Shown piece after piece: positions 15,928 through 37,207 of a stretch of DNA of 59,359 bases. A program made the position numbers and the translations under genes. Location: positions 1 through 59,359 of the IMG/VR virus record IMGVR_UViG_3300020171_000031; one strand, 5' to 3'. Each line of letters starts with the position of its first letter. Positions within the stretch are counted from its first letter, which is position 1. The stretch is from a virus (Duplodnaviria; Caudoviricetes). The notes under the pieces are model-generated. The model was not told the origin of the DNA, made no database searches, and was given only the letters and a program-made list of their open reading frames with translations.

Positions 15928-15957
15928 GTCACAAACGTGTCACACAGGGAGATGTTG

Positions 15958-16791
15958 ATGGCGTGGATTCAAGTGCATCAGAGCCTGCCAACCCACCGCA
16001 AAACCCTGGCGGCGGCGGCCATTTTAGGGGTGTCGGGCGTGCAGATGGTCGGGCATCTGGTCACTTTCTGGCTCTGGTGTTTGGATAACGCACCTATGGG
16101 CCAGCTAGGCGAAACGCCCAATGCGGTGATTGCCAGCGCGGCCCTCTGGCCCGGGGAGCCAGACGTTTTCGTATCTACTCTTTGCAGCACGCGACTCCTG
16201 GACGGAGCGCCGGGCAACTTGGCAATCCATAACTGGCCGCAATATGGCGGCAAGCTGGTCGAGAGCCGGACCCGGGACGCCGCCCGGCAGCGGGCCTTTC
16301 GCGAGCGCGCACGGCCACCTGTATCTGATGGAGCGTTACCGTTACGTAACGGGTACGTCACGGGTACGTCACGCGCTAGAGTAGAAGAGAGTAGACTTAG
16401 TACTCCTAAGGAGAGTATAGATAAACAACAGTCTGAGGGAGAAGATACTCCGCGCGCGCGGAGTCACGCGCGCATAACGTCGGCAGCGGCATTGTTGGCC
16501 CTCTTCTCACCCACTGAGATGATGAACATAAAGACGCGGTTCAACGGCACCGACTTGGAGTGGGAGGCTGCGAAGTGCGTTGAGTGGCACAGCGCGAAGA
16601 CGAAGGGTGGCCTCCGTAACGGTAAGCTGGGCTTTCGCAATTGGTTGGACCACTGTAAGCAGCGGGAGGTGCGAGATCGAGGAGTCGGAGGAGTCGGAAA
16701 ACCCTATCAGTTCACGAACGCGGGGGACGCGGGGCCTGACGAGTCTCACGAGACTCCTGCCTCGGATGACGCGGGAGGTAGCGCAGTGTAG
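15958..16791 (+). CDS. Phage replication initiator (replisome organiser)
   Basis: MAWIQVHQSLPTHRKT...GHLVTFWLWCLD...IHNWPQYGG; internal iterons; precedes dnaC and dnaB. Confidence 0.85.
   Translation: MAWIQVHQSLPTHRKTLAAAAILGVSGVQMVGHLVTFWLWCLDNAPMGQLGETPNAVIASAALWPGEPDVFVSTLCSTRLLDGAPGNLAIHNWPQYGGKLVESRTRDAARQRAFRERARPPVSDGALPLRNGYVTGTSRARVEESRLSTPKESIDKQQSEGEDTPRARSHARITSAAALLALFSPTEMMNIKTRFNGTDLEWEAAKCVEWHSAKTKGGLRNGKLGFRNWLDHCKQREVRDRGVGGVGKPYQFTNAGDAGPDESHETPASDDAGGSAV
16334..16372. repeat. Iterons inside the initiator gene (putative origin)
   Basis: cgttaccgttacgtaacgggtacgtcacgggtacgtcac followed by an A-rich tract. Confidence 0.65.
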
Positions 16792-22114: not shown

Positions 22115-22321
22115 ATGGCTCTTGATATACGGGCTGAACACATAGAGCGCCTAGCGAAAGCAGAGGCCGCCTATCAGTTAGCGCATAGCGCGTGGCGGGC
22201 GGCGGACTGGGACCTGGGGGAGACAGGGGAGACATTCGAGGCGATGAATAAGGCGTGCGAGGCCCGCGATGACGCTCAATTGAACTTGGACAAGCTAGAG
22301 AATCCAGAGTTATTTGCATGA
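22115..22321 (+). CDS. Small helical protein upstream of the recombinase
   Basis: AGGAGG RBS; TATAAT at 22091; ATGA overlap. Confidence 0.65.
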   Translation: MALDIRAEHIERLAKAEAAYQLAHSAWRAADWDLGETGETFEAMNKACEARDDAQLNLDKLENPELFA

Positions 22322-23232
22322 AGCCCGACCTGGCCCGGTTTACCCAGTGGATGCGCTTCCCACCCGACGTGGACATGCTCGGGAGGACGGTTCGTGCCAA
22401 GGGCGAGGGGACGATCAAGCAGTACCTCTACACCGCCGGGCGCTATGCGGAGTTTCTCGCAGGCCGAGACATGAGCACGGAAACGACCCGCGAGTGGATA
22501 GACGGGCTTACTGGAAATAGCGCCAGGAGCAAGGCGCACCACATCGAGGCGCTGAAGGCCCTCTTCTTCGCCCATGACATGCGGCTCGGTCTGGGCAAGC
22601 CCAAGTTTACCGAGAGCCTGCCGCGGGTGCTGAGTGAGGACGAGCTGACGCGGCTCATCGCGGATGCCAGGGAGCGGACCCGCAGCACGGACATAGGCGC
22701 CTACGGGCTGGAGCGAGCCGCCTGGCGCTACGTCCTCGTGATGGTCTTCTTCGGCTCTGGGGTGCGGAAGGACGAGGGGCGCAAACTCCGGGTGGAGGAT
22801 GTGGTCCGAGATGGCAACGAGGGGACGATTCACGTGCGTGAGGGCAAGGGTGGCGATGACAGGTACATCGCGGTCGAGGGGGAAGTGGTTGATGCGGTAG
22901 ATGACTGGCTGGCGATCCGCCGCATCAAGTCCCCCTGGATATTCGCCGGCCGCGATGCCTCCAAGCCCGCGAGCCGTCATCCCATCGAGGTGGGCCTCAC
23001 CCAGGCGTGCCGGTACGTGGGTATCCGGGACTTCCACGTCCACATGGCGCGCCACTCGTATGCGACCGCCCTGGCGAGGGGCGACGCCGACGCCGAGGCC
23101 ATCCGGGTCCAGCTAGGCCACAAGTCCGTGACCACGACGCAGAAGTACCTGCACCTAACGCTGTCGGAGCGTCGGGGGCACCTCCCGTCGGTAGTGGGGA
23201 CCACGCGCCCGAAGCAGCTTAAGGAGAAGTAA
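22318..23232 (+). CDS. Tyrosine recombinase (XerC/D-like)
   Basis: SGVRKDE, GKG, HMARHSYAT, LGH, TTQKY catalytic set. Confidence 0.95.
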   Translation: MKPDLARFTQWMRFPPDVDMLGRTVRAKGEGTIKQYLYTAGRYAEFLAGRDMSTETTREWIDGLTGNSARSKAHHIEALKALFFAHDMRLGLGKPKFTESLPRVLSEDELTRLIADARERTRSTDIGAYGLERAAWRYVLVMVFFGSGVRKDEGRKLRVEDVVRDGNEGTIHVREGKGGDDRYIAVEGEVVDAVDDWLAIRRIKSPWIFAGRDASKPASRHPIEVGLTQACRYVGIRDFHVHMARHSYATALARGDADAEAIRVQLGHKSVTTTQKYLHLTLSERRGHLPSVVGTTRPKQLKEK

Positions 23233-26486: not shown

Positions 26487-26511
26487 AGGAAACTAGAGTG
26501 AGAGGAGTTCC

Positions 26512-26904
26512 ATGGACATCTCGATAGCTGTCAACAATCTAATCCAGAGCTACCCGTTCGTGGCCCTGACCGTTCTCCTCTTGGCCAACGTGGTCCTGGG
26601 TGCCCTGAACGCCCTCCGACCCGATCCGGACGGCGTGCGTAGGTTCACAGCCCTGGAGCTCACGGACATCTGCAAGAAGGTGGTGCCATTCATCGGCACC
26701 TACTTCGCCCTGGGCACCGGTGGGGAGGTATTGCAGAATGGCTATGGCGAGCTGTTGAAGGCCGTGGGAGCTGTTCTACCTGGTATCGCCTTCGCTCTAG
26801 GCACCCTGAAGAACGCTCTGGGTCTGGTAAACATCCAGGTTCCGTCTTGGCTTGTGTGGCTCTACCCACAGAAAGTCGCAGTGCGCGGCCCGAATATGGG
26901 GTAG
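26512..26904 (+). CDS. Holin-like multi-TM membrane protein
   Basis: GAGGAG RBS; three hydrophobic segments. Confidence 0.6.
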   Translation: MDISIAVNNLIQSYPFVALTVLLLANVVLGALNALRPDPDGVRRFTALELTDICKKVVPFIGTYFALGTGGEVLQNGYGELLKAVGAVLPGIAFALGTLKNALGLVNIQVPSWLVWLYPQKVAVRGPNMG

Positions 26905-26919
26905 GTAGCCGCACCCCTC

Positions 26920-26948
26920 TTGACAAGCCCCTGGCCTGCGAGTATGCT
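26920..26948 (+). promoter_or_regulatory. sigma70-type promoter of a small RNA
   Basis: TTGACA-17-TATGCT. Confidence 0.7.
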
Positions 26949-26952
26949 TGAC

Positions 26953-27029
26953 CTTGCCTGGTTAGTCTGCCTTGCCAGGCCACATCTCCTTGTACCGCTC
27001 CTCTTGCCACGGGGGGGCGGTACTGTTTT
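26953..27029 (+). ncRNA. Candidate trans-acting antisense sRNA (~75 nt)
   Basis: Own promoter, 5' hairpin, unpaired cacatctcctt, intrinsic terminator; 18/19 complementary to 29424-29442. Confidence 0.65.
26992..27029 (+). terminator. Intrinsic terminator
   Basis: gtaccgctcctc...ggggggcggtac followed by tgttttt. Confidence 0.75.
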
Positions 27030-27066
27030 TAGTCACCAGCGACAGGCTTTATGAACAGTTAAAGGC

Positions 27067-27096
27067 TTGACAAAGCCCTCTCATCTAATGTAGAGT
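27067..27096 (+). promoter_or_regulatory. sigma70-type promoter upstream of the tRNA and array 1
   Basis: TTGACA-18-TAGAGT. Confidence 0.6.
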
Positions 27097-27130
27097 GGGG
27101 CTGAGGCCAGACGTGGGGCTGAGGCCTGAC
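27095..27130 (+). repeat. 18-bp tandem repeat
   Basis: gtggggctgaggccagac / gtggggctgaggcctgac. Confidence 0.9.
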
Positions 27131-27134
27131 GCGA

Positions 27135-27202
27135 TGCGGGGGCATGGTGCACTGGGGTCTCATAAGCCTCTGGGCTTGGTTCGATTCCAGGCCCCGCTAC
27201 CA
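27135..27202 (+). tRNA. tRNA-Met(CAT)-like gene with truncated D-arm
   Basis: Acceptor tgcgggg/ccccgct-A-CCA, anticodon loop ctCATaa, T-arm cttgg-ttcgatt-ccagg; only 12 nt in the D region. Confidence 0.7.
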
Positions 27203-27350
27203 AGTGAGCTGCCGAACAGTCGCCGTCCAAGACGGCGTTCGGAGAAGGAGATGGAGATATGCGTAGGGCACTCTCATGGGTCTGGGAAGCGCTGGTACGT
27301 GGCGAACAGTTGAAAGGGCTTTCCTGGGGGCCTTGGTTCCTGGTGCAGCC

Positions 27351-27692
27351 ATGACGGACCCGAAGGATGCAGCCTGTCCCCGCTGTGGAGCGGAAGCAGG
27401 TCAACCCTGTAAGACCAAGACGGGGGCGGTGGTCAACTCGCGAGGGAACGTGCATCCGGCGCGGCTCCCTTTGCCGAGCACCATTCTCACCCTCCTGAAC
27501 ACCAAGCTGGTGGACGTGTTGGAGTTCCGGCCGGCCGCCCGGGCTGGCCGGAAGGACATCCCGTGGTTGCTCCGTCGGGCCGCAGACGTGCTGGAGAGCG
27601 ACGACCGGCCCATCGAGGGGATAGAGCTCACCCTGGAGGCGGCGCCGGACGGCACCTGGGTGCTCGTGGCCCAGGTGGTGCATCCGCAGTAG
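27351..27692 (+). CDS. Zinc-finger protein directly upstream of array 1
   Basis: CPRCGA..GQPC...HPAR. Confidence 0.7.
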   Translation: MTDPKDAACPRCGAEAGQPCKTKTGAVVNSRGNVHPARLPLPSTILTLLNTKLVDVLEFRPAARAGRKDIPWLLRRAADVLESDDRPIEGIELTLEAAPDGTWVLVAQVVHPQ

Positions 27693-27694
27693 AG

Positions 27695-28020
27695 GGCGAA
27701 GGGGGAGGAAGGGCCAGGTCGGGGCAGGCTGGCGAACGGCTGGGAACGGAGAGGCTGGCGGTAGGAAAGGGGACGTGCGGCTTGGGGAGGTAGGCGGACG
27801 GAAAGGCGCGGCTCGGCTCTGGTAGGCGATAGGGTGGGGGCTAGAACAGGACAGGCTGGCGGAAGGTCAGGGAAGGGCGGAACCGGGTCGGCTAGGCTGG
27901 CGGTAGGAATGGGCCGGAATGGGGAGGCTGGCGGGAGGGCAGAACCGGACTGGGTTGGCCAGGCTGGCGGTAGGTTTGGGGAGGGCGGGCCAGGAGGCGA
28001 ACGGGCGAAGACAGGCACGG
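27695..28020 (+). repeat. GG-pentamer array 1 (9 full GGCG-delimited units plus a degenerate tenth); candidate guide RNA array
   Basis: GGCG at 27695, 27731, 27757, 27793, 27825, 27858, 27899, 27930, 27966, 27996; GG every 5 nt inside units. Confidence 0.9.
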
Positions 28021-28051
28021 ATGTGGTAAACTATCGGTGAAAGGAGGAGCC

Positions 28052-28477
28052 ATGCTGCTACGGTTACTCATGTTCCTGGTGTCCTTCCTGGTCCTGGTGG
28101 TGGCCCTGGTGGTCCAGCTGGTGGGGAGCATCGTCGCCACCTTCCTGACCGCCTCGCGGCCGGCTGTCCGCATTCTCACGATGCCCCTGCGGGTGCTCAA
28201 ACATCCACCCGCGATGTCCCTGGTGGCCTTCAGTTGGTTGATGAGAAGCGCCGCCCTGGTCCTGGTTACAACCACCAGGGCCACTTCCGGCGCATGCACA
28301 CGACTGGTTAACATCCTCGTTGGACGACCTGCTGCGAGCGCCAACCATATTGACGTGAAGGGTCTAGCCCGGCATCACCTGGCGCTGCGGGAGACCGGCC
28401 TACGTGGACGACAGCTGCGCGTTCTGCTCACACGGCTGTGGGACTTGCCCAGCGTGGGCGTGACCTCCGCGGGCTAA
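28052..28477 (+). CDS. Membrane protein
   Basis: AAGGAGG RBS; long N-terminal hydrophobic helix. Confidence 0.55.
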   Translation: MLLRLLMFLVSFLVLVVALVVQLVGSIVATFLTASRPAVRILTMPLRVLKHPPAMSLVAFSWLMRSAALVLVTTTRATSGACTRLVNILVGRPAASANHIDVKGLARHHLALRETGLRGRQLRVLLTRLWDLPSVGVTSAG

Positions 28478-28837
28478 TCAGCCGCCTAAACCGGCTTACG
28501 CCCCTGACTTCCAAGGCCAGGGCGTCTGCCGTTCCGCCACAGCGTGCATTCATCACAGGCTGGATAACCAGTACCGAGCAATGCACGGGACAGAGGGCGA
28601 CCCACCAGGGCCGCCCTCTTGTGTTGCCTCTAGGGAAACGTAGCTGCGCGGAGGAGGGCTCGCCACTGGAGACCACGCCGCACCCGCCGGTGGTGCGCAT
28701 CGCCTGATCACACCGCCACCACTCGCCAGATACAGGCCAGATATAACAGCCGCCCGAAGCGCCAGCCCCACGTAGCCCTATCTACTAGCATATAAATCAA
28801 CGTTGAGTATGCGAGTGACCTAACTCTAGTTAAAGCC

Positions 28838-28866
28838 TTGACATAGAGCCTGGACTAGGGTATATT
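28838..28866 (+). promoter_or_regulatory. Near-consensus sigma70-type early promoter
   Basis: TTGACA-17-TATATT. Confidence 0.75.
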
Positions 28867-29053
28867 GTATCTGCGCAAGGCAAATCTAAGCGCCAGGTGA
28901 ATCGAATCCGAAACCGACCACAACCGAATAGGCAACGGTCTACCCTGAGGTACTGGCCGCAAGGCCAAAAGACTCACCGTAGGCCAGAAAGCCAAATGGC
29001 TTCACTCTCTCTAGGCGTGGCATAAGCAAGCCATAGCCTACAGGGGGTGAAAC

Positions 29054-29329
29054 ATGACAGAGTTTGCCGGGGTTAGAGTCCAGGGCACAAAGGGCTTAGG
29101 ACTAGCGCCGTTTTCCGGAATATTCGCCGACGAAGCAGCGGGCCCGACGAAGAGCTTGGTGCAAGCACGGTCCGAGCTCCAGTACATCGTGGCAGAGTTG
29201 CAGGGCATCCTGGACGGCGAGTTCGATGGCACAGACGCCGAGTGGGCGAAGTACGACGCTGAGGGCGGCGACGATGCCGTCTTGCAGGTGCTCGTACATC
29301 GCCTGGACGCCATCACCTGTCGTATTTAG
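29054..29329 (+). CDS. Small acidic protein
   Basis: GGGGGTG RBS; D/E-rich. Confidence 0.65.
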   Translation: MTEFAGVRVQGTKGLGLAPFSGIFADEAAGPTKSLVQARSELQYIVAELQGILDGEFDGTDAEWAKYDAEGGDDAVLQVLVHRLDAITCRI

Positions 29330-29436
29330 GTGCGGGGCTTCCGCCCCGCCTAGAGAGAGTGAAGCCAAAGGTTCCCGCTACTGGGCGGCGCCCTCTCCCT
29401 CTTCAAGAATCTGAACGGAAGAGAAGGAGATGTGGC

Positions 29437-30081
29437 ATGGCAGAGACAATCCAGGCGACCCCAGTAGTGACAACCCCCGTAGACCCCCTGGCCGACGAGG
29501 AGGCCAAGTTGCTGGCCAAGCTGGCCGCACTCCGGGCGGAGCGCGTGGTCAACACGGCCAGGGACATCTTGACGGCGGGCCTCAAGGCCAAGCTCCCGGA
29601 CGTGGTCAAGGCCGTCACGGACGAGGCCAAGTTCGACCTCCACAAGGCGGGAGTGGGCGTGTGGCTGTACTACGCCAAGGAGACGGGCAGCCCGATGATA
29701 TGCCTGCTCTCCGTCGGCGACGACGGCCTCCACCCCAAGGCCATGAAAGTCCACAAGGCGACCAACGGCAACGGGACGCCCAAGGCGGCCTCCAACGGCA
29801 ACGGCAACGGCAACGGCAACGGGAAGCCCGCCGGCGTCGAGTACGACGCCTTCCTGTACGACGGGCGGGGCCCGTTTCCCGTCGGGGCGGACTACAAGAC
29901 GGCGTACGACGCCGTCTTCGACGCCCTGGCCGTCCCGAAGGCGGAGCGCCCCAACCACAACAGGCCGGAGAGGTGGGCGGGCAAGTGGCAGGCCCGCGTC
30001 CTCATCGTGGAGCGCGGGAAGCGCCCCACAGACCAGCAGTTCGCGGAGGCCAAGGCGAAGGTGGCCTCCATCAAGTCCTAG
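29437..30081 (+). CDS. Hypothetical protein with RPxHxR domain
   Basis: AAGGAG RBS; very high GC3; NG linker. Confidence 0.8.
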   Translation: MAETIQATPVVTTPVDPLADEEAKLLAKLAALRAERVVNTARDILTAGLKAKLPDVVKAVTDEAKFDLHKAGVGVWLYYAKETGSPMICLLSVGDDGLHPKAMKVHKATNGNGTPKAASNGNGNGNGNGKPAGVEYDAFLYDGRGPFPVGADYKTAYDAVFDALAVPKAERPNHNRPERWAGKWQARVLIVERGKRPTDQQFAEAKAKVASIKS

Positions 30082-30163
30082 AACCCAGGCGGGAGGGGCG
30101 CCGCCCAGTAGCGGGAACCGACTCACTTCCTCCAGGCGCAGCAGAAGCGCAGGAGGAGGAGAC

Positions 30164-30424
30164 ATGAACCAGTGCATCCGGGGGAAGGTGGTGCCGTTCT
30201 GGAAGCAGCCCATCATCTACAAGGTGGTGGACTGGGCTGCCGACCACTACTACGGCTGGTTCCGGGATGTGGACCGTGCGGAGGCACGGGCCCGGGAAGT
30301 CCACGGCCTGGTGGTGTCCCAGACTGTTGGTGCCGGGACGCGCTTCCTGGCGAGCATCCGCCAAGCGGGTGAGTTCGCCAAGGCAGCGGCCAAGATGGAT
30401 GCCAACGGTGGGAGGTTGGAGTAG
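30164..30424 (+). CDS. Hypothetical protein
   Basis: AGGAGG RBS. Confidence 0.7.
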   Translation: MNQCIRGKVVPFWKQPIIYKVVDWAADHYYGWFRDVDRAEARAREVHGLVVSQTVGAGTRFLASIRQAGEFAKAAAKMDANGGRLE

Positions 30425-30500
30425 GTCGGGGCTTCTGCCCCGCCTGGAGGAAGTGAGGCTCGTCTCACCCGACGGCGGGATAACGCCGAGGAGGTGTGAC

Positions 30501-30707
30501 GTGACCATCGAAGAGACGATGGCCAAGATGGACGCCGCGGGCGCGGAGGCCGGGAAGGAGCTGGCCGAGACGTTCGAGCCGGCGGAGATCCGCAAGGTGG
30601 GGGCCTGGCTGGACCGCCACTGGCGGAAGGCGGGGTACAAGCGGCTCGTCGGAGAGCTGCTGGTCCAGGGCGGGTTCCAGTGGAACCCGCGGCCTCCGAA
30701 GGGCTAG
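30501..30707 (+). CDS. Hypothetical protein (68 aa)
   Basis: GAGGAGGT RBS, GTG start; W..HW..AGYKRL. Confidence 0.7.
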   Translation: MTIEETMAKMDAAGAEAGKELAETFEPAEIRKVGAWLDRHWRKAGYKRLVGELLVQGGFQWNPRPPKG

Positions 30708-30883
30708 GTACGGGGGTTCTCCCCCCGTCGGGTGAGACGAGAGTTCGCTCCCTCCGGGTGCGGCAGAAGCCGTAGCCCGATGTGCCTCCCGGGCTGGACG
30801 AGATGGTGCCAGGTACTCGGGGCGGCGCGGCGAATGGCCGGCTTCTGCCGCACCCGGAGTGAGCGAAGAAAGGAGATGTGGCA

Positions 30884-31061
30884 ATGGCGAGGTTCTGGCA
30901 GGCGCCAGAGCCGCCGGACGTGGCCGCCCAACGTGCGAAGCTGGGGCAGGCGTTGGGGCTGCACAGTACGGTATGCGGATGCTCACCCTGGGGTCACGGT
31001 ATACGCATGGCGCGACATCCGCCACGGGTTGTTCTTCGGGATGAAGACGATAGTGGAGTAG
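30884..31061 (+). pseudogene. Small gene with a probable 1-nt insertion in a G run near 30955
   Basis: RBS and GC3 favour frame MARFWQ... in the first half and ...CTVRYADAH...KTIVE* in the second. Confidence 0.45.
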
Positions 31062-31137
31062 GCGCGGTTGCGCCTCCCCCAGGAGGGCCGAGACGGCTCC
31101 GCCATCTTGGGGGAGATGCAAACGAAAGGAGATGTGC

Positions 31138-32178
31138 ATGACAGCAGGCAAACCCTGTCCCGTGGCAGGCTGCGGGTACGCGGCGCTGTCGCAGGGCGAC
31201 CTGGACGGGCACACCGCCTACGCTCACCGTGAGCGGAAGCCGACCCCCTCCGGCAACCCTGTGGCCGCGCCTCCAGCTCCGCAGCGGGCCGACAAGCCGG
31301 AGTGGCATCCGGCGCTGTACGTCCCGCAACGCGACCCGCACTTTTGGGTTGCGGACGAAACCACCCGCTTGTTCTTCGTCCTGCAAATGCGGACGGAGGC
31401 GGGCCATCAGGAGAACGTGCTTCTCCGTGGCCCCAAGGGGACGGGCAAGACGACGCTGCCGCGGATATACGCGGCGGCGTGCAAGCGCCCGTTCTTCTCC
31501 ATGGACTGCGGAGCCGTCTCGGAGCTCTCCGACTGGTGGGGTGACAAGGAGCTGGAGGGCGGGCGCACCTTCACTGTGAGAGCAGCCCTGGTGGACGCCC
31601 TGGAGACAGAGAACTGTGTCGTCCTGCTGGACGAGGCCAACAGGACGCATCCCGAGAACCTGAACGCCCTATTCGGCCTCCTGGACCACAGGCGAGCCGC
31701 GTGGGTCCCGCTGCTCCGGCGGGAGGTACGCGTGGCGCGGGGCGTGACGTTCTTCACGACGCTCAACGAGGGGACGGAGTACGCGGGCACCAACCCCGTG
31801 GACTCGGCCCTGCGGGACAGGTTCTCCTACACCATCGTGACCACCTGGCCGCCGGAGCTTGAGGAGGCGGCCATCCTGGTGGGCCGAACGGGGGTGGACC
31901 AGGATATGGCGGCGAAGTTGGTACGGTTCGCCAACACCGTCCGCCGCACCCCCGCCATCCACTACGCCCTGTCCACCAGGGCCCTCTTGGCCACGTGCCA
32001 GTGTCTCCAGGAGGGCATGGCGTTGCAGGAGGCGGCGCTGTTCACTGTCGTCAACGCGGCGCCCGAGGATGTGGACCGAAAACTCCTTCTGCAAGCGCTT
32101 CAGATGCACGTCGGGAAGATTGACGAGGCGTGGGTAGTCTCCGTGACGGGCGAAGCCGTCCAGGGGGCGACGCCATGA
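31138..32178 (+). CDS. MoxR/CbbQ-type AAA+ ATPase with N-terminal C2H2 finger
   Basis: CPVAGC...HTAYAH; GPKGTGKT; LLDEANR; ALRDRF; STR. Confidence 0.92.
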   Translation: MTAGKPCPVAGCGYAALSQGDLDGHTAYAHRERKPTPSGNPVAAPPAPQRADKPEWHPALYVPQRDPHFWVADETTRLFFVLQMRTEAGHQENVLLRGPKGTGKTTLPRIYAAACKRPFFSMDCGAVSELSDWWGDKELEGGRTFTVRAALVDALETENCVVLLDEANRTHPENLNALFGLLDHRRAAWVPLLRREVRVARGVTFFTTLNEGTEYAGTNPVDSALRDRFSYTIVTTWPPELEEAAILVGRTGVDQDMAAKLVRFANTVRRTPAIHYALSTRALLATCQCLQEGMALQEAALFTVVNAAPEDVDRKLLLQALQMHVGKIDEAWVVSVTGEAVQGATP

Positions 32179-34487
32179 CGCAGCGAAACCTCTCGGACTT
32201 CTGGCGCTTTGACAAGTCGGACGACCTGGTGATGGAGATGGTGAGCGTTCTCCAGGGGGCCGACAACCTCATCGGGCTGATGTCGGGCGACATGCAGCGG
32301 GAGAAGCTCATGGAGAAGCGGATGCGCGTCCGCTGGTGCCCAGGGGATGTGAGCGCGGTCTCTCCGGAGCGGGAGGTCGTGTTCCTCAACTACCGCCACC
32401 TGCGGGGCGTGCCGACGCCCTTCCCGGGCGAGGCGGTGGACAAGGTGATAGGCGACGCGGCCCATGAGGGGGGCCACGTCCTGTGGACGGGCAACACGCC
32501 CGACTGGGCGGCGGAGTTGCACCGCCGCTACATGATGCGGGGGAAGAACGGAGGCCGTGGAAAGTTCGCCATCTGGTACGGGCGCAACCGTCAGGGGATG
32601 GTGGCGTGGTTCAAGGACTGCGCCAACATCCTGGAGGACGCCTACGTGGACAAGAAGGTGAGCAACCGATGGCCCGTCCTGGGCGCCTATATCCAGCAGG
32701 CGAAGGCGAATAACCCCGCGGACCTTCGGGTAGATTGGGATGCCATCGCGGCGAAACCGAAGCCGTCCATGCTGGAGATGCGGAATCTCTGGTGTCACCT
32801 GGCGCTGTACGGCGGCGATGTCCCGGCGCAACTCTCCAGGAGTGTGCGGGATGGGCTCGACTTCCTGCTCGACTCCACGCTGCGCGTTCTCAAGCTGGAA
32901 AGTGTCGGGCTTCGCCTGGACGTGGCGTTCGAGTGCCTAGTGTACATGGTCAAGGCGTACACGGAGGACGAGCGGGCGCTTCCGAAGAAGCCGCCCGCGC
33001 CCCAGGCTCCAGCAGCTGAGTTGGCCGAAGGCGAGGGGGAGGGAGGGCAAGGCGACCCCACTCCTGGTGAGACGGGCCTGCCCGACCTGGAGAAGAAGCC
33101 CAAGGCCACCCCAAAGGGTGAGAAGGAGGACGAGGGTGAAAAGCAAGACGGCGAGGACGCCGATGGAGATTCGGACGCTGACGCAGCGGACGGTGCAGGC
33201 GATAAGGAGGCTGGACAGGCTCCTGCCACCGATGCCGAGCCCGACGAAGAGGACGAGAACGCCGACCCGGAAGCCGGCCAGGATGGCGAGGGCAAAGGCG
33301 GAGACGCAGACGGCGCTGGCGAAAATGGAGAGGATAGTGCGGAGGCTGGCAGCGGCTCCGCCGACGCCGACGGAGAGGGCAAGGCTGGAAAGAAAGACAC
33401 GGGCGGCGAAGCGGGAGAAGGCGGCGGCAAGGGCGGCGAGGAGGGTGACGGGGAAGATGGGGGTGAGGAAGCCGACGTCACGCCGTCCTTAAAGCTGGCG
33501 CCCAAGCAGCCCGACGAGGACAAGGACGAGTACACTCCGGGCGGCACCAACGCGGCCAGCGATACGCTGGAGCACCAGCGGGATATGCAGTCCCAGGTCA
33601 TCACGGTGGACGACCCGCACCTCCTGGAACTGGTGGAGAAGGCGATGGCCGAGCAGCTGGAACTGCTCACCAAGGAGGTCGCCGACATCCTGGCGCAGAA
33701 GCCGGAGGAGGTGGCTACCAGAGCGCGCCGCGCCTCCTATGACGCCCAGGCTCTGGCGGAGATTCGCCTGCGCATCGGACAGCAGGCGGCGAATCTCCGC
33801 AGGGTGTTCGAGCAGGAGATGCGGGCTAACTCGCGCTTCCTGCGCGGGCAGCTCAGAGGGCGGCTGGACACCCGCCGCCTGGCCAGGGTGGGAGCGGGCG
33901 ACTACAACGTGCGGATGCGGCGTGAGGTTATCGGGAAGCCCGACCTGGCCCTGGGCCTCCTGATGGATGTGAGTGGGTCCATGATGGGCTACATGCCCGT
34001 AGTGTGGGAGACGGCGGGCCTGTTCGCGGAGGCGCTGGTGGGGCGGCCTGGGATTAACTTCCTGGGTTGCACCTACACCACCGAGTATTCCAATGGGCAA
34101 AACGGGACTTGCCTGACGCGCATCGCCGACAGGGGTCTGGGGCGGCTGTGCGTCGGGGATGTGGTGCAGGGTGGTGGCACTCCCTCCGGGCAGGCTATCG
34201 CCGCCATGCGGGTGCTGGTGGGGCGGATGCCCGAGCGGGAGAAGGTGATAATCCACTTCACGGATGGCCAGCCCGACCGGGAGGAGCCAGTCCGGCGGGC
34301 GGTGGAGGCGTGTCGCCAGGCGGGCATTGGGGTGGTGTGCATCACGGTGCTGGATGGGGGCTGGCGCGGCGCCACCTGGCAGCAGCAGCACCTGGACTTG
34401 CAGTACGGGCGCGGAAACTGGGGACTAATCGGCAAGGTGGAGGACCTGCCCAAGGCGGTGGCGGCCCTCCTCAAGAGTCTAGCGTAG
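32175..34487 (+). CDS. CobT-like vWA protein (HExxH N-domain, acidic linker, MIDAS)
   Basis: HEGGH, NILED, DVSGSM, GGTP, TDG. Confidence 0.9.
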   Translation: MTQRNLSDFWRFDKSDDLVMEMVSVLQGADNLIGLMSGDMQREKLMEKRMRVRWCPGDVSAVSPEREVVFLNYRHLRGVPTPFPGEAVDKVIGDAAHEGGHVLWTGNTPDWAAELHRRYMMRGKNGGRGKFAIWYGRNRQGMVAWFKDCANILEDAYVDKKVSNRWPVLGAYIQQAKANNPADLRVDWDAIAAKPKPSMLEMRNLWCHLALYGGDVPAQLSRSVRDGLDFLLDSTLRVLKLESVGLRLDVAFECLVYMVKAYTEDERALPKKPPAPQAPAAELAEGEGEGGQGDPTPGETGLPDLEKKPKATPKGEKEDEGEKQDGEDADGDSDADAADGAGDKEAGQAPATDAEPDEEDENADPEAGQDGEGKGGDADGAGENGEDSAEAGSGSADADGEGKAGKKDTGGEAGEGGGKGGEEGDGEDGGEEADVTPSLKLAPKQPDEDKDEYTPGGTNAASDTLEHQRDMQSQVITVDDPHLLELVEKAMAEQLELLTKEVADILAQKPEEVATRARRASYDAQALAEIRLRIGQQAANLRRVFEQEMRANSRFLRGQLRGRLDTRRLARVGAGDYNVRMRREVIGKPDLALGLLMDVSGSMMGYMPVVWETAGLFAEALVGRPGINFLGCTYTTEYSNGQNGTCLTRIADRGLGRLCVGDVVQGGGTPSGQAIAAMRVLVGRMPEREKVIIHFTDGQPDREEPVRRAVEACRQAGIGVVCITVLDGGWRGATWQQQHLDLQYGRGNWGLIGKVEDLPKAVAALLKSLA

Positions 34488-34963: not shown

Positions 34964-35761
34964 ATGAGCAGACCATTGTGGAAAGGCACGGTCAGTTTTG
35001 GCCTTGTCAACATCCCCGTGGCGCTCTATGGAGCGACGGACGAGCTGAAGGTCAGCTTCCGCACGCTCCACAAGGGGTGCGCTGCGCCCATCGCGCAGCA
35101 GCACACCTGCACCGCCTGTAAGCAGGTGGTGGAGAGGGCGGATGAGGTCAAGGGGTATGAGGTCGAGGAAGGCCGCTTCGTCGTCATGGAAGAGGCGGAC
35201 TTCGCGGGCCTCCCCGTAGCGTCCCAGACGAGCATCAAGGTGGTGGGCTTCGTGGACTCATTCCAGGTGGACCCGCGCCAGCTCGATGAGCCGTACTTCA
35301 TGGGCATCGGGCAGACCAAGCGGGGGAAGGTGAACGTCGTGGACCAGGGAGCGGCCAAGGGGTTTGCCCTCCTGCACGCCGCGATGCAGAAGCTGGACAA
35401 GCTGGCGGTGGCCAAGGTGACGATGCGCCAGCGGGAGAAGCTGGTGGTGTTCCGTCCCTATGGCGACGTGATGCTTCTCCAGACGTTGCGATGGCCCGAC
35501 GAGCTTCGGTCGGCGGAGGCGCCTGCTCTGCCGGAGGTCTCGGACAAGGAGTTGGCGCTGGCCGAGTCGCTGGTGAACGCCATCGGCGGGTGTGACCTGA
35601 CTAAGTTCAGCGACGAGTACCGGGAGGCGCTGGAGAAGGTCATCCAGGCAAAGGCGGCGGGCCAGCCCGTCGTGAGCGCGGTGCCGACGGAGGCCGAGGC
35701 CACGGTGGACGTGATGGGCGGCCTGGAGGCCAGCCTGGCGGCGCTGCGAGGAGCGGTATGA
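34964..35761 (+). CDS. ku: Ku DNA end-binding protein (NHEJ)
   Basis: RPLWKGTVSFGLVNIPVALY, VKGYE, LRWPDELR, DEYREAL, LEASL. Confidence 0.95.
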   Translation: MSRPLWKGTVSFGLVNIPVALYGATDELKVSFRTLHKGCAAPIAQQHTCTACKQVVERADEVKGYEVEEGRFVVMEEADFAGLPVASQTSIKVVGFVDSFQVDPRQLDEPYFMGIGQTKRGKVNVVDQGAAKGFALLHAAMQKLDKLAVAKVTMRQREKLVVFRPYGDVMLLQTLRWPDELRSAEAPALPEVSDKELALAESLVNAIGGCDLTKFSDEYREALEKVIQAKAAGQPVVSAVPTEAEATVDVMGGLEASLAALRGAV

Positions 35762-36048
35762 AAACAATCTGGAAGTACGCATTGTTGGTCGCGGACCGCC
35801 AAGAGCTTCAGATGCCCACTGGCGCTAACTTCCTGGCTGTCCAGGTTCAACGGGAGGAGATATGCCTGTGGGCCCTCGTTGACACTGACAACCCATTGGT
35901 AGGGCGCCGCATTCACACTTATGGGACAGGGCAGGGGCTGGGTGAGCTTGGCACCTACATCGGCACCTATCAGCTACGGGGTGGGGGGCTGGTGTTCCAT
36001 GTCTTTGAGGAACGACGCAGCGGTCTTGGCGGAGATCCGGCTGCATGA
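35758..36048 (+). CDS. Conserved phage protein (MKTIWKY...VFHVFE)
   Basis: Motif recognised from phage proteins; ATGA overlap. Confidence 0.7.
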   Translation: MKTIWKYALLVADRQELQMPTGANFLAVQVQREEICLWALVDTDNPLVGRRIHTYGTGQGLGELGTYIGTYQLRGGGLVFHVFEERRSGLGGDPAA

Positions 36049-36263
36049 GCGAGGAGCGGCGCATCGGGATGAGAAAGGTGGGCCCGTGGGTCTATTGTGG
36101 CCACGGGCCGGAGGGTCTCTTGTGGGCGGCGCCCTCGGACATCGGGAACCTCGTCATCCTCCGATGGGTAAAACTGGGCTGGTGGCCGCTCATCCGGGTT
36201 CACGAGACTTGGGTGGAGCGGGACAGGCTCCTGAATGCCATTGAGAAGGGGGTGCTCAAGTGA
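36045..36263 (+). CDS. Hypothetical protein
   Basis: ATGA/GTGA coupling. Confidence 0.55.
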   Translation: MSEERRIGMRKVGPWVYCGHGPEGLLWAAPSDIGNLVILRWVKLGWWPLIRVHETWVERDRLLNAIEKGVLK

Positions 36264-37207
36264 AGCTGGAACCGATGCTGGCAGAGCCTGGGGTCAAGCC
36301 CCGTGTGGACCCGTCGCTCCTGCACGAGGTCAAGTACGACGGCGTGCGCACGCTCTTCGTCGTGGAGGACGGGCACGTCACCTTCTGGTCCAGGGGAGGG
36401 CACGACATCACCGCAGCGTTCCCCGAGCTGGCGGAGGTGCCGTCCCACCTCAAGATGCAGAACGGCGTTGGGGATGGGGAGATAGTAGTGGGCAACGGGA
36501 CGATGGCCGACTTCAACGCCATCTCGCGTCGCGTCCACGTGCAGGACCCCTTGAAGATTCGACTGCGCTCGCGGGAGACGCCGACTAACCTCCGGGTGTT
36601 CGACCTGCCCGTGTATGAGCGGGATGACCTCACGGTGAATGGCGTGCGGCTGTCGCTAATGCAGCGCCGCGAGTTGCTTGCGGCAACCATCCGGGGTGGT
36701 CTGCCGAATGGCGTGGTGTGCATGGGCGACGCTGGGGAGTTCGGCGACGGCGCGGCGTTCTTCCGCTCCTGCCTGGAGCAGGGCTACGAGGGCATGATGG
36801 TGAAGAGCAAGGCGGGCCTCTACTACCCCGGGAAGCGACACCCTGACTGGGGCAAGAGCAAGCTGGAGCAGACAGCCGACTTCCAGGTGGTGGGCTACAC
36901 CTGGGGTGAGGGATGGAGGGGAGAGCGCCAACTCTTCGGTGCGCTGGTGCTGTCCACAGGCACACCAGGCAATCTCCAGTATTGCGGCGAGGTGGGTGGC
37001 GGCTTTACCAATGAGGAGCTGGAGACCATCGGGGCCCACCTGCGCACGATTGCCGTCTCGCAATGCCCGATGGTCAAGCTGGAAAAGGTAGAGGGGCTGT
37101 GCTCGTGGGTCGCGCCAGGGCTGGTGGTCGAGGTTAAGTTCATGGACTGGACGAGTGACCGGAAGCTCCGCTTTCCAAGATTCAAGGCAGTCCGGAGGAT
37201 GCGATGA
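36260..37207 (+). CDS. ATP-dependent DNA ligase (LigD/LigC ligase domain only)
   Basis: EVKYDGVR, DGEIV, VFD, EGMMVK, YYPGKR, LRFPRF. Confidence 0.95.
   Translation: MKLEPMLAEPGVKPRVDPSLLHEVKYDGVRTLFVVEDGHVTFWSRGGHDITAAFPELAEVPSHLKMQNGVGDGEIVVGNGTMADFNAISRRVHVQDPLKIRLRSRETPTNLRVFDLPVYERDDLTVNGVRLSLMQRRELLAATIRGGLPNGVVCMGDAGEFGDGAAFFRSCLEQGYEGMMVKSKAGLYYPGKRHPDWGKSKLEQTADFQVVGYTWGEGWRGERQLFGALVLSTGTPGNLQYCGEVGGGFTNEELETIGAHLRTIAVSQCPMVKLEKVEGLCSWVAPGLVVEVKFMDWTSDRKLRFPRFKAVRRMR

Follow-up and report, generated by a model that had tools for sequence, protein, structure and literature searches.

The window analysed here is a complete viral record of 59,359 base pairs (bp) with direct terminal repeats, from an uncultured groundwater phage (IMG/VR record IMGVR_UViG_3300020171_000031, Caudoviricetes; G+C about 64%), in which positions 28997-30867 form a chain of five long inverted repeats standing back to back, the first four of them each around one small gene. 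The helices that these repeats can form in RNA are non-random, conserved by structure, orthogonal and placed around each open reading frame (ORF), and that they are a real, selected RNA feature is well supported. As to the mechanism, we favour with moderate confidence the reading that they are helices of a messenger RNA (mRNA) which close and insulate each cistron, are probably sites of RNase III, and partly unlock translation. We read the arms as cistron-closing mRNA helices because they lie in one predicted transcript, respect the gene boundaries, show compensatory change, interact with the ribosome-binding site (RBS) and fold better on the sense strand.

The cores of the first four pairs match at 21/21, 24/24, 17/17 and 17/17 positions, and the fifth pair at 28/29 with a perfect core of 21 bp; with mismatches allowed, the arms of pairs 1-5 reach 31, 33, 27, 29 and 29 nucleotides (nt), and consecutive stems are separated by 2, 2, 1 and 2 nt. 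Six stems of at least 17 perfect bp with a loop of 40-1500 nt occur in the whole genome, five of which are the chain (1.9 kb) and one of which lies near 16135, whereas 200 dinucleotide shuffles held a mean of 0.02 such stems (any stem in 4/200). A sequence-only reading of this DNA had described the five pairs at spacings of 1-2 nt, which the inverted-repeat search bears out, and folding, which it proposed as a check, gives a ViennaRNA minimum-energy structure of 28980-30890 that contains all five stems. A bracket test, scoring the best ungapped stem between the 100 nt before a start codon and the 60 nt after the stop codon against 1000 shuffles, gave 0/1000 shuffles matching the observed score for each of units 1-4. 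Each of these four pairs surrounds one small ORF with its own strong Shine-Dalgarno (SD) sequence; the RBS lies inside the loop in every unit, the helix begins 5-12 nt past the stop codon, and the arms fill all four intergenic gaps downstream of one predicted promoter. The third-position GC (GC3) of the enclosed ORFs is 0.73-0.96, as in known genes of the genome. The elements of the chain are as follows.

28838-28866, + strand: predicted sigma-70-type promoter, TTGACA-17-TATATT, with 11/12 consensus matches, the best of 3 promoter-like sites in 26500-32500.
28873-28996, + strand: leader of about 120 nt, carrying ACAACCGAATAGG at 28920-28932.
28997-29027, + strand: 5' arm of unit 1 (core 28997-29017), which also complements its own RBS region; 0/1000 shuffles.
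29054-29329, + strand: cargo of unit 1, a 91-aa ORF with GC by codon position of 0.66/0.42/0.73.
29329-29351, + strand: post-stop hairpin of unit 1, GCGGGGC-UUCC-GCCCCGC, -17 kcal/mol, 10/200 shuffles being as stable; without U tail.
29337-29367, + strand: 3' arm of unit 1 (core 29347-29367).
29370-29402, + strand: 5' arm of unit 2 (core 29370-29393), then a pyrimidine tract pairing with the SD (hairpin 29394-29430).
29437-30081, + strand: cargo of unit 2, a 214-aa protein with a coiled coil, a Gly-Asn repeat linker and a C-terminal domain.
30087-30119, + strand: 3' arm of unit 2 (core 30096-30119).
30122-30148, + strand: 5' arm of unit 3, with 17 bp (core 30122-30138), a 2x2 internal loop and then 8 bp; it holds CUUCCUCC.
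30164-30424, + strand: cargo of unit 3, an 86-aa ORF with GC3 of 0.85, unrelated to the cargo of unit 1.
30422-30446, + strand: post-stop hairpin of unit 3, -18.5 kcal/mol (2/200 shuffles), overlapping the 3' arm at 30431-30457 (core 30441-30457).
30459-30487, + strand: 5' arm of unit 4 (core 30459-30475), in which CGUCUCACC is able to pair with GGUGUGACG at the SD and start codon.
30501-30707, + strand: cargo of unit 4, a 68-aa ORF with a GTG start and GC3 of 0.96.
30712-30741, + strand: weak post-stop hairpin of unit 4 (30712-30725; 36/200 shuffles as stable) and 3' arm core (30725-30741).
30744-30867, + strand: unit 5, a gene-less extended hairpin of 124 nt (arms 30744-30772/30839-30867), -93 kcal/mol, z = -9.25, with arms homologous to those of units 1 and 3.

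The predicted promoter aligns with the promoter-like region of related loci and, to judge from its sequence, should drive the whole chain as one polycistronic transcript; the terminator scan called no U-tailed terminator within 28997-30867. Two details of the sequence-only reading have to be amended. It placed a hairpin just after the stop codon in all four gene units, which stands for units 1 and 3, is weak for unit 4 and fails for unit 2, where 109/200 shuffles fold as well, so that two to three of the four carry one; and it described the 66 nt between the arms of pair 5 as an insert, whereas these do not form a free loop and the whole 124 nt folds as one hairpin.

The units are partly copies of one another. 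The arms of units 1, 3 and 5 are homologous, and 89.7% of the cells of their 29 aligned pairs are paired, a level that 0/500 shuffles reach and that falls to 38-47% in slid controls. At 7/29 pairs both sides have changed and at none has only one, so the divergence with compensatory changes that had been noticed for pairs 1 and 3 extends to unit 5. Between units 1 and 3 the homology spans the arms to a few nt past the start codon, and again from the stop codon outward; the two cargo proteins have no mutual similarity. The arms of units 2 and 4 are unrelated to those of the other units. Cognate arm duplexes have energies of -50 to -71 kcal/mol and the best non-cognate combination reaches -45 kcal/mol, which makes the five pairs orthogonal, and the adjacent 3' and 5' arms of neighbouring units are not mutually complementary, only unit 5 being a local palindrome.

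The cargo of unit 2 is the only one conserved in relatives, where it always stands next to a pair of AAA and VWA genes; the AAA gene served as anchor for locating relatives. The corresponding features of the window, downstream of the chain, are these.

30870-31141, + strand: RBS module AAGGAGATGTGGCA followed by an 85-codon ORF (30884-31141); its 14-mer is repeated at 29424 and 30870.
31065-31124, + strand: hairpin just before the AAA gene, -39.5 kcal/mol, z -3.75.
31138-32178, + strand: MoxR/CobS-like AAA ATPase gene.
32130-34487: VWA/CobT-like gene, following the AAA ATPase gene.

With a profile of the 214-aa family, 10 related metagenomic loci were found to carry the gene, in each case just before the AAA gene; the two genes are co-oriented in 11/11 loci (the window and these 10), two weak profile matches to other window ORFs (E 6.5e-05 and 5.3e-04) being left out of the count. 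Seven loci including the window have both flanks and entered the bracket test; L016, L017, L018 and L032 have no 5' flank and were excluded. The ungapped stem score replaced RNAduplex on 110-nt flanks, which yielded long loose duplexes and did not discriminate, and a low-threshold inverted-repeat scan of the relatives' loci gave too much noise in GC-rich DNA for further brackets. The observed score was reached by 0/1000 shuffles in unit 2 of the window, L025, L030, L029 and L031, by 6/1000 in L012 and by 14/1000 in L015, so that bracketing of the conserved gene is seen in six to seven of the seven testable loci. In all seven, the 3' arm starts 5-12 nt past the stop codon and the 5' arm ends 22-48 nt before the start codon, so that the loop takes in the RBS. 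Arm sequences vary by lineage: those of the window comprise 24 bp and are GC-rich, those of L025 comprise 24 nt and are AT-rich, and those of L012 measure 12 nt.

In the clade of L030, L029, L015 and L031, 63/80 cells pair as against 18-34/80 when the partner is slid by 1-3 nt; this table was built from coordinates, the MAFFT alignment of the 3' arms being hampered by unequal lengths of the C-termini. Between L030 and L031, 5 positions show compensatory change on both sides, and at one of them L029 has a U.G intermediate. Because the arms differ by lineage yet pair with compensatory changes, it is complementarity and not sequence that is kept, and the search for covariation in related loci, which the sequence-only reading had called for, thus finds brackets of other arm sequences that persist and co-vary. 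In the relatives the family gene abuts the AAA gene and looks stand-alone, a promoter-like region preceding it and strong hairpins following it; units 1, 3, 4 and 5 are additions of the window's lineage.

One part of the relatives' brackets survives in the window in another form. The columns of ACAACCGAATAGG are invariant in 5/5 aligned sequences, and in the relatives this motif begins the 5' arm, whereas in the window it lies in the leader and has no complement at up to 3 mismatches. A leader motif without its partner implies that in the window the bracket around the conserved gene was replaced by a new one. The underlying motif, ACAAnnGAATA(G), is conserved in sequence in six lineages (window 28920-28932; L025 7193-7207; and upstream of the family gene in L030, L029, L015 and L031). 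It is constant while the remaining 5' arm co-varies freely, its pairing partner being lost in the window, and it may be a promoter or start-site element, or a site for a protein or an RNase.

A second line of evidence links the arms to translation. When the 5' untranslated region (UTR) plus 40 nt is folded alone, the 5' arms of units 1, 3 and 4 pair onto their own SD/start region: in unit 1 through a 16-bp arm-RBS helix that includes G.U pairs, and in unit 3 through CUUCCUCC, which is complementary to the SD GGAGGAGG. In the predicted fold of the full unit the 3' arm captures the 5' arm, and the RBS becomes more accessible, its mean unpaired probability in units 1, 3 and 4 rising from 0.28, 0.27 and 0.27 to 0.51, 0.72 and 0.50. 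The arm-RBS duplexes have energies of -22.9 (unit 1), -23.4 (unit 3) and -17.3 kcal/mol (unit 4), and the cognate duplex is the strongest in each row of the 4x4 table. Shuffled arms reach the cognate value in 7, 201, 1 and 89 per 1000 cases for units 1-4, counts by which two units show a good signal, one a weak signal and unit 2 none. In the relatives' clade, CAUAGG together with the innermost 4-5 nt of the 5' arm forms base pairs with CCUAUGGG, the region of the start codon, and in L031 these include G.U pairs. In 10/11 elements the + strand gives the more stable fold of the two strands (unit 5, -93.0 vs -82.8 kcal/mol; whole chain, -988.6 vs -951.3 kcal/mol). The suggestion that a single strand folds is strengthened by these results: the co-varying brackets of the relatives, the compensation among paralogues, the arm-RBS pairing with G.U and the greater stability of the + strand all point the same way.

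We propose the following sequence of events. One polycistronic transcript would start at the sigma-70-type promoter 28838-28866, and within this RNA each of the four small genes would have its 5' UTR and 3' UTR paired in a helix of 17-24 perfect bp, or 25-33 bp with extensions, so that each cistron would become its own closed loop and the fifth, gene-less hairpin would end the series. The helices would insulate the folding of each cistron and hide both RNA ends. Host RNase III, or cuts at the single-stranded linkers, would then free monocistronic mRNAs, which would keep their 5' and 3' ends base-paired and be resistant to exonucleases. In units 1, 3 and 4, the 5' arm would first fold onto its own SD/start region, and the 3' arm, made only after the whole gene, would displace this pairing and open the RBS. 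The GC-rich post-stop hairpins would also insulate translation between cistrons. Cutting by RNase III is proposed because of the length of about two turns, which the helices attain, the spacing of 1-2 nt and the analogy with T7 and ribosomal RNA (rRNA).

The RNase III signals of T7 are local stem-loops between genes. As in the T7 early mRNA, the host polymerase would here transcribe a phage operon in which double-stranded RNA elements set each cistron apart from the next; the chain has five helices of about two turns, and the local hairpin of unit 5 resembles the T7 sites. PMC3867540 gives five RNase III signals for the polycistronic early RNA of T7, and an ideal RNase III substrate of 22 bp with a minimum of about 11 bp. 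Unlike those of T7, four of the five helices here are long-range and enclose a whole gene, and cleavage is for them proposed by analogy; since they enclose the gene, cleavage would leave both mRNA ends paired to each other. In bacterial rRNA operons, RNase III cuts the stems in which the two flanks of 16S rRNA, and likewise those of 23S rRNA, are paired. The chain is similar in that the flanks of each product form long-range helices, serially in one precursor, and dissimilar in that the products are protein cistrons of 200-650 nt with their RBSs in the loop, no rRNA or transfer RNA (tRNA) being present.

In systems of the hok/Sok type, the 5' tac element pairs with the 3' fbi element, and this 5'-3' pairing keeps hok mRNA inert until its 3' end is trimmed. 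There, as in type I toxin mRNAs in general and as proposed here, a three-way choice between pairing of the 5' and 3' ends and pairing of the 5' end with the translation region decides translatability; unlike in hok/Sok, however, the 5'-3' pairing is here the predicted open form, the cargo is not a small hydrophobic toxin and no antisense RNA is evident. Pairing between the two UTRs of one mRNA is described for hbs of B. subtilis, where 14 bp control the access of ribonuclease (PMC5737220), and for icaR of S. aureus, where it controls translation and RNase III cleavage (PMC3868564). The intramolecular UTR pairing is shared with both, the relatives' brackets of 12-24 nt are of similar size, and complementarity between the UTRs of the same cistron is conserved in the relatives; the motif is here repeated back to back for four genes in one operon, as it is in neither hbs nor icaR. 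In icaR, repression comes about through pairing of the 3' UTR with the SD itself. In the units here the SD lies within the loop, and the partner of each 3' arm is the upstream 5' arm and not the SD; as this 5' arm, if left free, would cover the SD, its capture is predicted to activate. Finally, the post-stop hairpins of units 1, 3 and 4 resemble ribosome termination structures, stable structures just downstream of stop codons which are proposed to insulate translation between operon genes (PMC7518266); those structures are local, whereas the hairpins here are combined, and partly overlap, with gene-spanning helices.

Several observations weigh against this reading. The core stems are perfectly Watson-Crick, and among the paralogues no one-sided (G.U) change occurs; in the relatives, U.G wobbles (2 in L029 and 1 in the degraded inner end of L015) are equalled by C.A mismatches (2), and on that count repeats acting as DNA would look alike. 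The pairing of arm and RBS is not significant in units 2 and 4, the SD of unit 2 remains paired (0.35 to 0.32), being part of a local hairpin of its own that stacks on the closing stem, and among the relatives L030, L025 and L015 show weak release of the RBS and L012 shows none. The advantage of the + strand is small outside unit 5 and is reversed in L029, and all folds are equilibrium predictions in which ribosomes and kinetics are not included. The promoter, the cleavage and the RNA ends are likewise predictions. The phage encodes no RNase III, so that cleavage would need the host enzyme. The brackets of the relatives, at 12-24 nt and often imperfect, fall short of the length ideal for RNase III, and for this reason the core function that is conserved cannot be cleavage, which may apply to the long stems of this phage only. 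Such short brackets suggest that the ancestral role was closure and end protection, as in hbs, and not cleavage; the long perfect stems may date from the joining of several units in a single transcript.

The strongest alternative, a serious one although on balance unlikely, is that the RNA helices are never cleaved and make of each cistron an independent folding domain, which would insulate the RBSs, block 5'-end-dependent and 3' exonucleases on the uncut transcript and tune translation, much as does the short UTR pairing of single-gene mRNAs. It accommodates the relatives well, where imperfect brackets of 12-24 nt lie in units that seem to be monocistronic, each having a promoter-like region and, downstream, a strong hairpin. 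The hbs pairing modulates access of RNase Y without RNase III (PMC5737220), and structural units as wide as an ORF are reported generally for operon mRNAs (PMC5318159). What it leaves unexplained are the perfect stems of 17-24 bp, longer than the relatives need, their abutment at 1-2 nt, and the gene-less 124-nt hairpin of the same family that closes the series.

That the repeats act as DNA, either as cassettes bounded by inverted repeats and mobile or invertible via a recombinase or RecT-type recombination, or, for units 1, 3 and 5, as a family like miniature inverted-repeat transposable elements (MITEs), we regard as improbable. The homologous ends of units 1 and 3 around unrelated ORFs, the same ends without a gene in unit 5 and the wobble-free core arms would fit it, as would the RecT and tyrosine integrase encoded by the phage and the direct adjoining of the conserved gene and the AAA gene in relatives, which makes units 3-5 lineage-specific additions. 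However, the unrelated arms of units 2 and 4 provide no common recombinase site, and the changes by which the paralogous arms diverged mirror each other, as is explained by selection for self-pairing but not by recognition by a protein. The complementarity of 5' arm and RBS with its G.U pairs has no meaning at the DNA level, the conserved gene keeps its orientation relative to the AAA gene in all 11 loci, no target-site duplications flank the units (by eye), and a scan of IMG/VR with the arm motif gave 4 chance matches, none with a partner arm. All copies of the arms are tandem within the 1.9 kb, with no further copy elsewhere in the genome; no resolvase or invertase is encoded in the phage genome, and the tyrosine integrase (22627-23160, or 22318-23232 with wider ends) lies about 6 kb from the chain.

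Known cassette systems were considered individually. Every integron cassette ends, on its 3' side, in attC, a local palindrome that has conserved core sites, and IntI and attI are adjacent; Correia elements are MITEs whose hairpins, when present in mRNAs, are RNase III substrates. Both kinds of element share with the chain the co-directed small ORFs with imperfect palindromes between them and homologous ends with differing or no cargo. An integron cassette array was rejected since the arms flank the gene, differ between units and, where adjacent, are non-complementary, local attC-like palindromes are absent except for unit 5, and no integron integrase is nearby. A family of MITEs or of transposons with terminal inverted repeats, for which one would look for dispersed copies and target duplications, was rejected on the tandem arrangement, the lack of flanking duplications (by eye) and the four partnerless matches in IMG/VR. 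An invertible segment or shufflon was rejected on the uniform orientation (11/11), the unlike arms of units 2 and 4, the lack of a resolvase or invertase and the distance of the integrase. The same three facts of orientation, unlike arms and missing resolvase tell against the inverting or excising system that the sequence-only reading had offered as an option; its idea of cassettes keeps an evolutionary sense, in that units 1 and 3 share UTR frames around unrelated ORFs, and loses the movement driven by a recombinase. Its call to look for rearrangements in DNA turned up none at the arms: contigs of X1, a possible source sample, cover 27756-29822 and 29796-33000 colinearly, with joints from 27801 back to 27707 and from 30552 to 30626 (one contig, depth 4.7), the latter skipping 30553-30625 within the ORF of unit 4. 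The DNA runs (n=3) were examined as contigs, which cannot show rare rearrangements, RNA ends or expression.

A switch between terminator and antiterminator, in which post-stop hairpins and long-range stems, in either role, would control read-through into the next gene, draws on the GC-rich hairpins that begin 2-5 nt past the stops of units 1, 3 and 4 and whose 3' halves overlap the inner stem end, but it is very improbable, as the hairpins are followed by CUAGAGAG, CCUGGAGG and CGGGUGAG and by no U tract, the terminator scan of the chain was negative, unit 2 has no hairpin, the overlap concerns the inner 3-12 nt only, which lets the hairpin form alongside the core stem of 17-24 bp, and the 3' arm, being made later than the hairpin, could not keep it from forming.

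Returning to cistron-closing helices, we would extend that reading only tentatively to portable gene-in-a-loop RNA cassettes, each composed of a 5' arm masking the RBS, an ORF, a post-stop hairpin and an unmasking 3' arm, which would provide insulation, protected ends and a completion checkpoint and whose frame would be reused for gene gain or swap. The checkpoint, as speculative as the cassette itself, would consist in translation only once the 3' end of the cistron's own RNA has been transcribed. As the frame is reused with unrelated ORFs in units 1 and 3 and is empty in unit 5, it would be the unit of early-gene gain and swap for this phage lineage.

None of the cargo proteins has a match in Pfam, PHROG or NCBIfam, and for the 214-aa protein an AlphaFold model (pLDDT 68.5, pTM 0.36) found no PDB match at E <=0.001 and the protein atlas no usable match; an H-NS-like C-terminal domain was an idea by eye that no search supported, and we do not retain it. 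Its Gly-Asn linker is encoded by an (AACGGC)n repeat at 29757-29829, where the contigs of the probable source run are interrupted and unrelated metagenome contigs accumulate in large numbers, and relatives have the same kind of linker in other lengths. A direct repeat of 16 nt (30388-30403/30521-30536, 15/16) encodes AKMDA twice, once close to the end of the ORF in unit 3 and once close to the start of that in unit 4. Downstream of the chain, the coding status of ORF 30884-31141 is doubtful, and its GC3 is only 0.57. The 12-nt core of the hairpin before the AAA gene matches the second intergenic hairpin of the relatives at 11/12 (by eye), and a 15-bp perfect complement connects this hairpin (31088-31102) with a site 370 nt inside the AAA gene (31508-31522), which may mean nothing because about 0.6 such pairs are expected by chance genome-wide. 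An RBS module, AAGGAGATGTG(G)CA(A)TG, is reused on the + strand at 29424-29437 (gene 29437), 30870-30883 (ORF 30884) and 31126-31140 (AAA gene), and on the - strand at 26973-26991 before a leftward gene.

Besides RecT, the tyrosine integrase and the AAA and VWA proteins, the genome encodes DnaB, Ku and an ATP-dependent DNA ligase. Ku and the ligase stand together at 34964-37207, downstream of the AAA-VWA pair, as a phage-borne end-joining pair; such pairs are known in some actinobacteriophages. ARAGORN called no tRNA gene in the 59,359-bp record, and Rfam 15 gave 0 matches at gathering score across the whole window, the sole match at E <=1 being a plant miRNA-precursor model on the hairpin of unit 5 (24.5 bits vs a gathering score of 142). 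The chain region has no blastn match among GenBank phages, tblastn of the AAA protein gave matches of <30% identity throughout, and IMG/VR scans with the 214-aa protein, the AAA protein and the alignment of the 214-aa family found no relatives. An alignment of AAA proteins recovered three loci only from IMG/VR, at 39% identity and all without the family gene of 29437. In metagenomes, relatives of the AAA protein occur at 42-60% identity (best aligned segment), some binned with Chloroflexota; the 214-aa family profile was found neither in the metagenome-assembled genome holding an AAA relative nor in 401 genomes of its phylum, and a scan of genome contigs gave one useful locus, L033, without the family gene.

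Other elements of the genome may also be regulatory. Between 27700 and 27990, at least 6 copies of (A/C)GGCTGGCGG(T/A/G)AGG, with successive starts 36-108 nt apart, occupy a G-rich non-coding stretch between a small ORF and ORF 28037-28477, parts of which match short metagenome contigs; the array may consist of protein-binding sites (iterons or operators). At 27140-27205 we noticed by eye the 3' part of a tRNA-like structure, with an anticodon-arm-like CUCAUAA loop, a T arm with GGTTCGATTCC and an acceptor strand ending in ACCA, which neither ARAGORN nor Rfam called and which could be the attP core of a phage integrating into a tRNA gene. A promoter-like site at 26920-26948 is followed by the best U-tailed terminator of the region (26992-27023), and the RNA of about 70 nt between them would be antisense to the RBS module of the leftward gene (AAGGAGATGTGGC, - strand, 26973-26991); the segment 26919-27030 is thus a candidate for a small antisense regulator. 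The only other long inverted repeat of the genome (15892-15926/16335-16372, 27-35 nt, 83-93%) is made of repeated GTTACCGTTAC and GTGACGTACCCGT words that flank the start of ORF 15937-16791, between recT and dnaB, and is possibly an origin or operator region.

The components of the proposed design are known already, namely intercistronic RNase III signals of phages, enclosing stems of the rRNA type, pairing between 5' and 3' UTRs, and control by fold-back on the RBS; full-text searches, in which subscription journals were thinly covered, found no operon in which successive protein genes each lie in their own long perfect back-to-back helix. The usual picture of a bacterial or phage operon is a linear series of cistrons separated by local hairpins, whereas the natural operon seen here seems to consist of closed RNA modules, with each gene bounded by its own orthogonal helix, which compensatory evolution maintains, and with the same gene bracketed by other sequences in distant relatives. 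If the helices are processing sites, this would amount to an rRNA-style maturation of mRNAs with both transcript ends hidden, and if the 3' arm unmasks the RBS, to a device in cis by which a gene has to be finished before it is translated. Either way, the chain would be a compact natural design for insulating genes in polycistronic RNAs, and it offers a possible account of how phages add small early genes without disturbing their neighbours.

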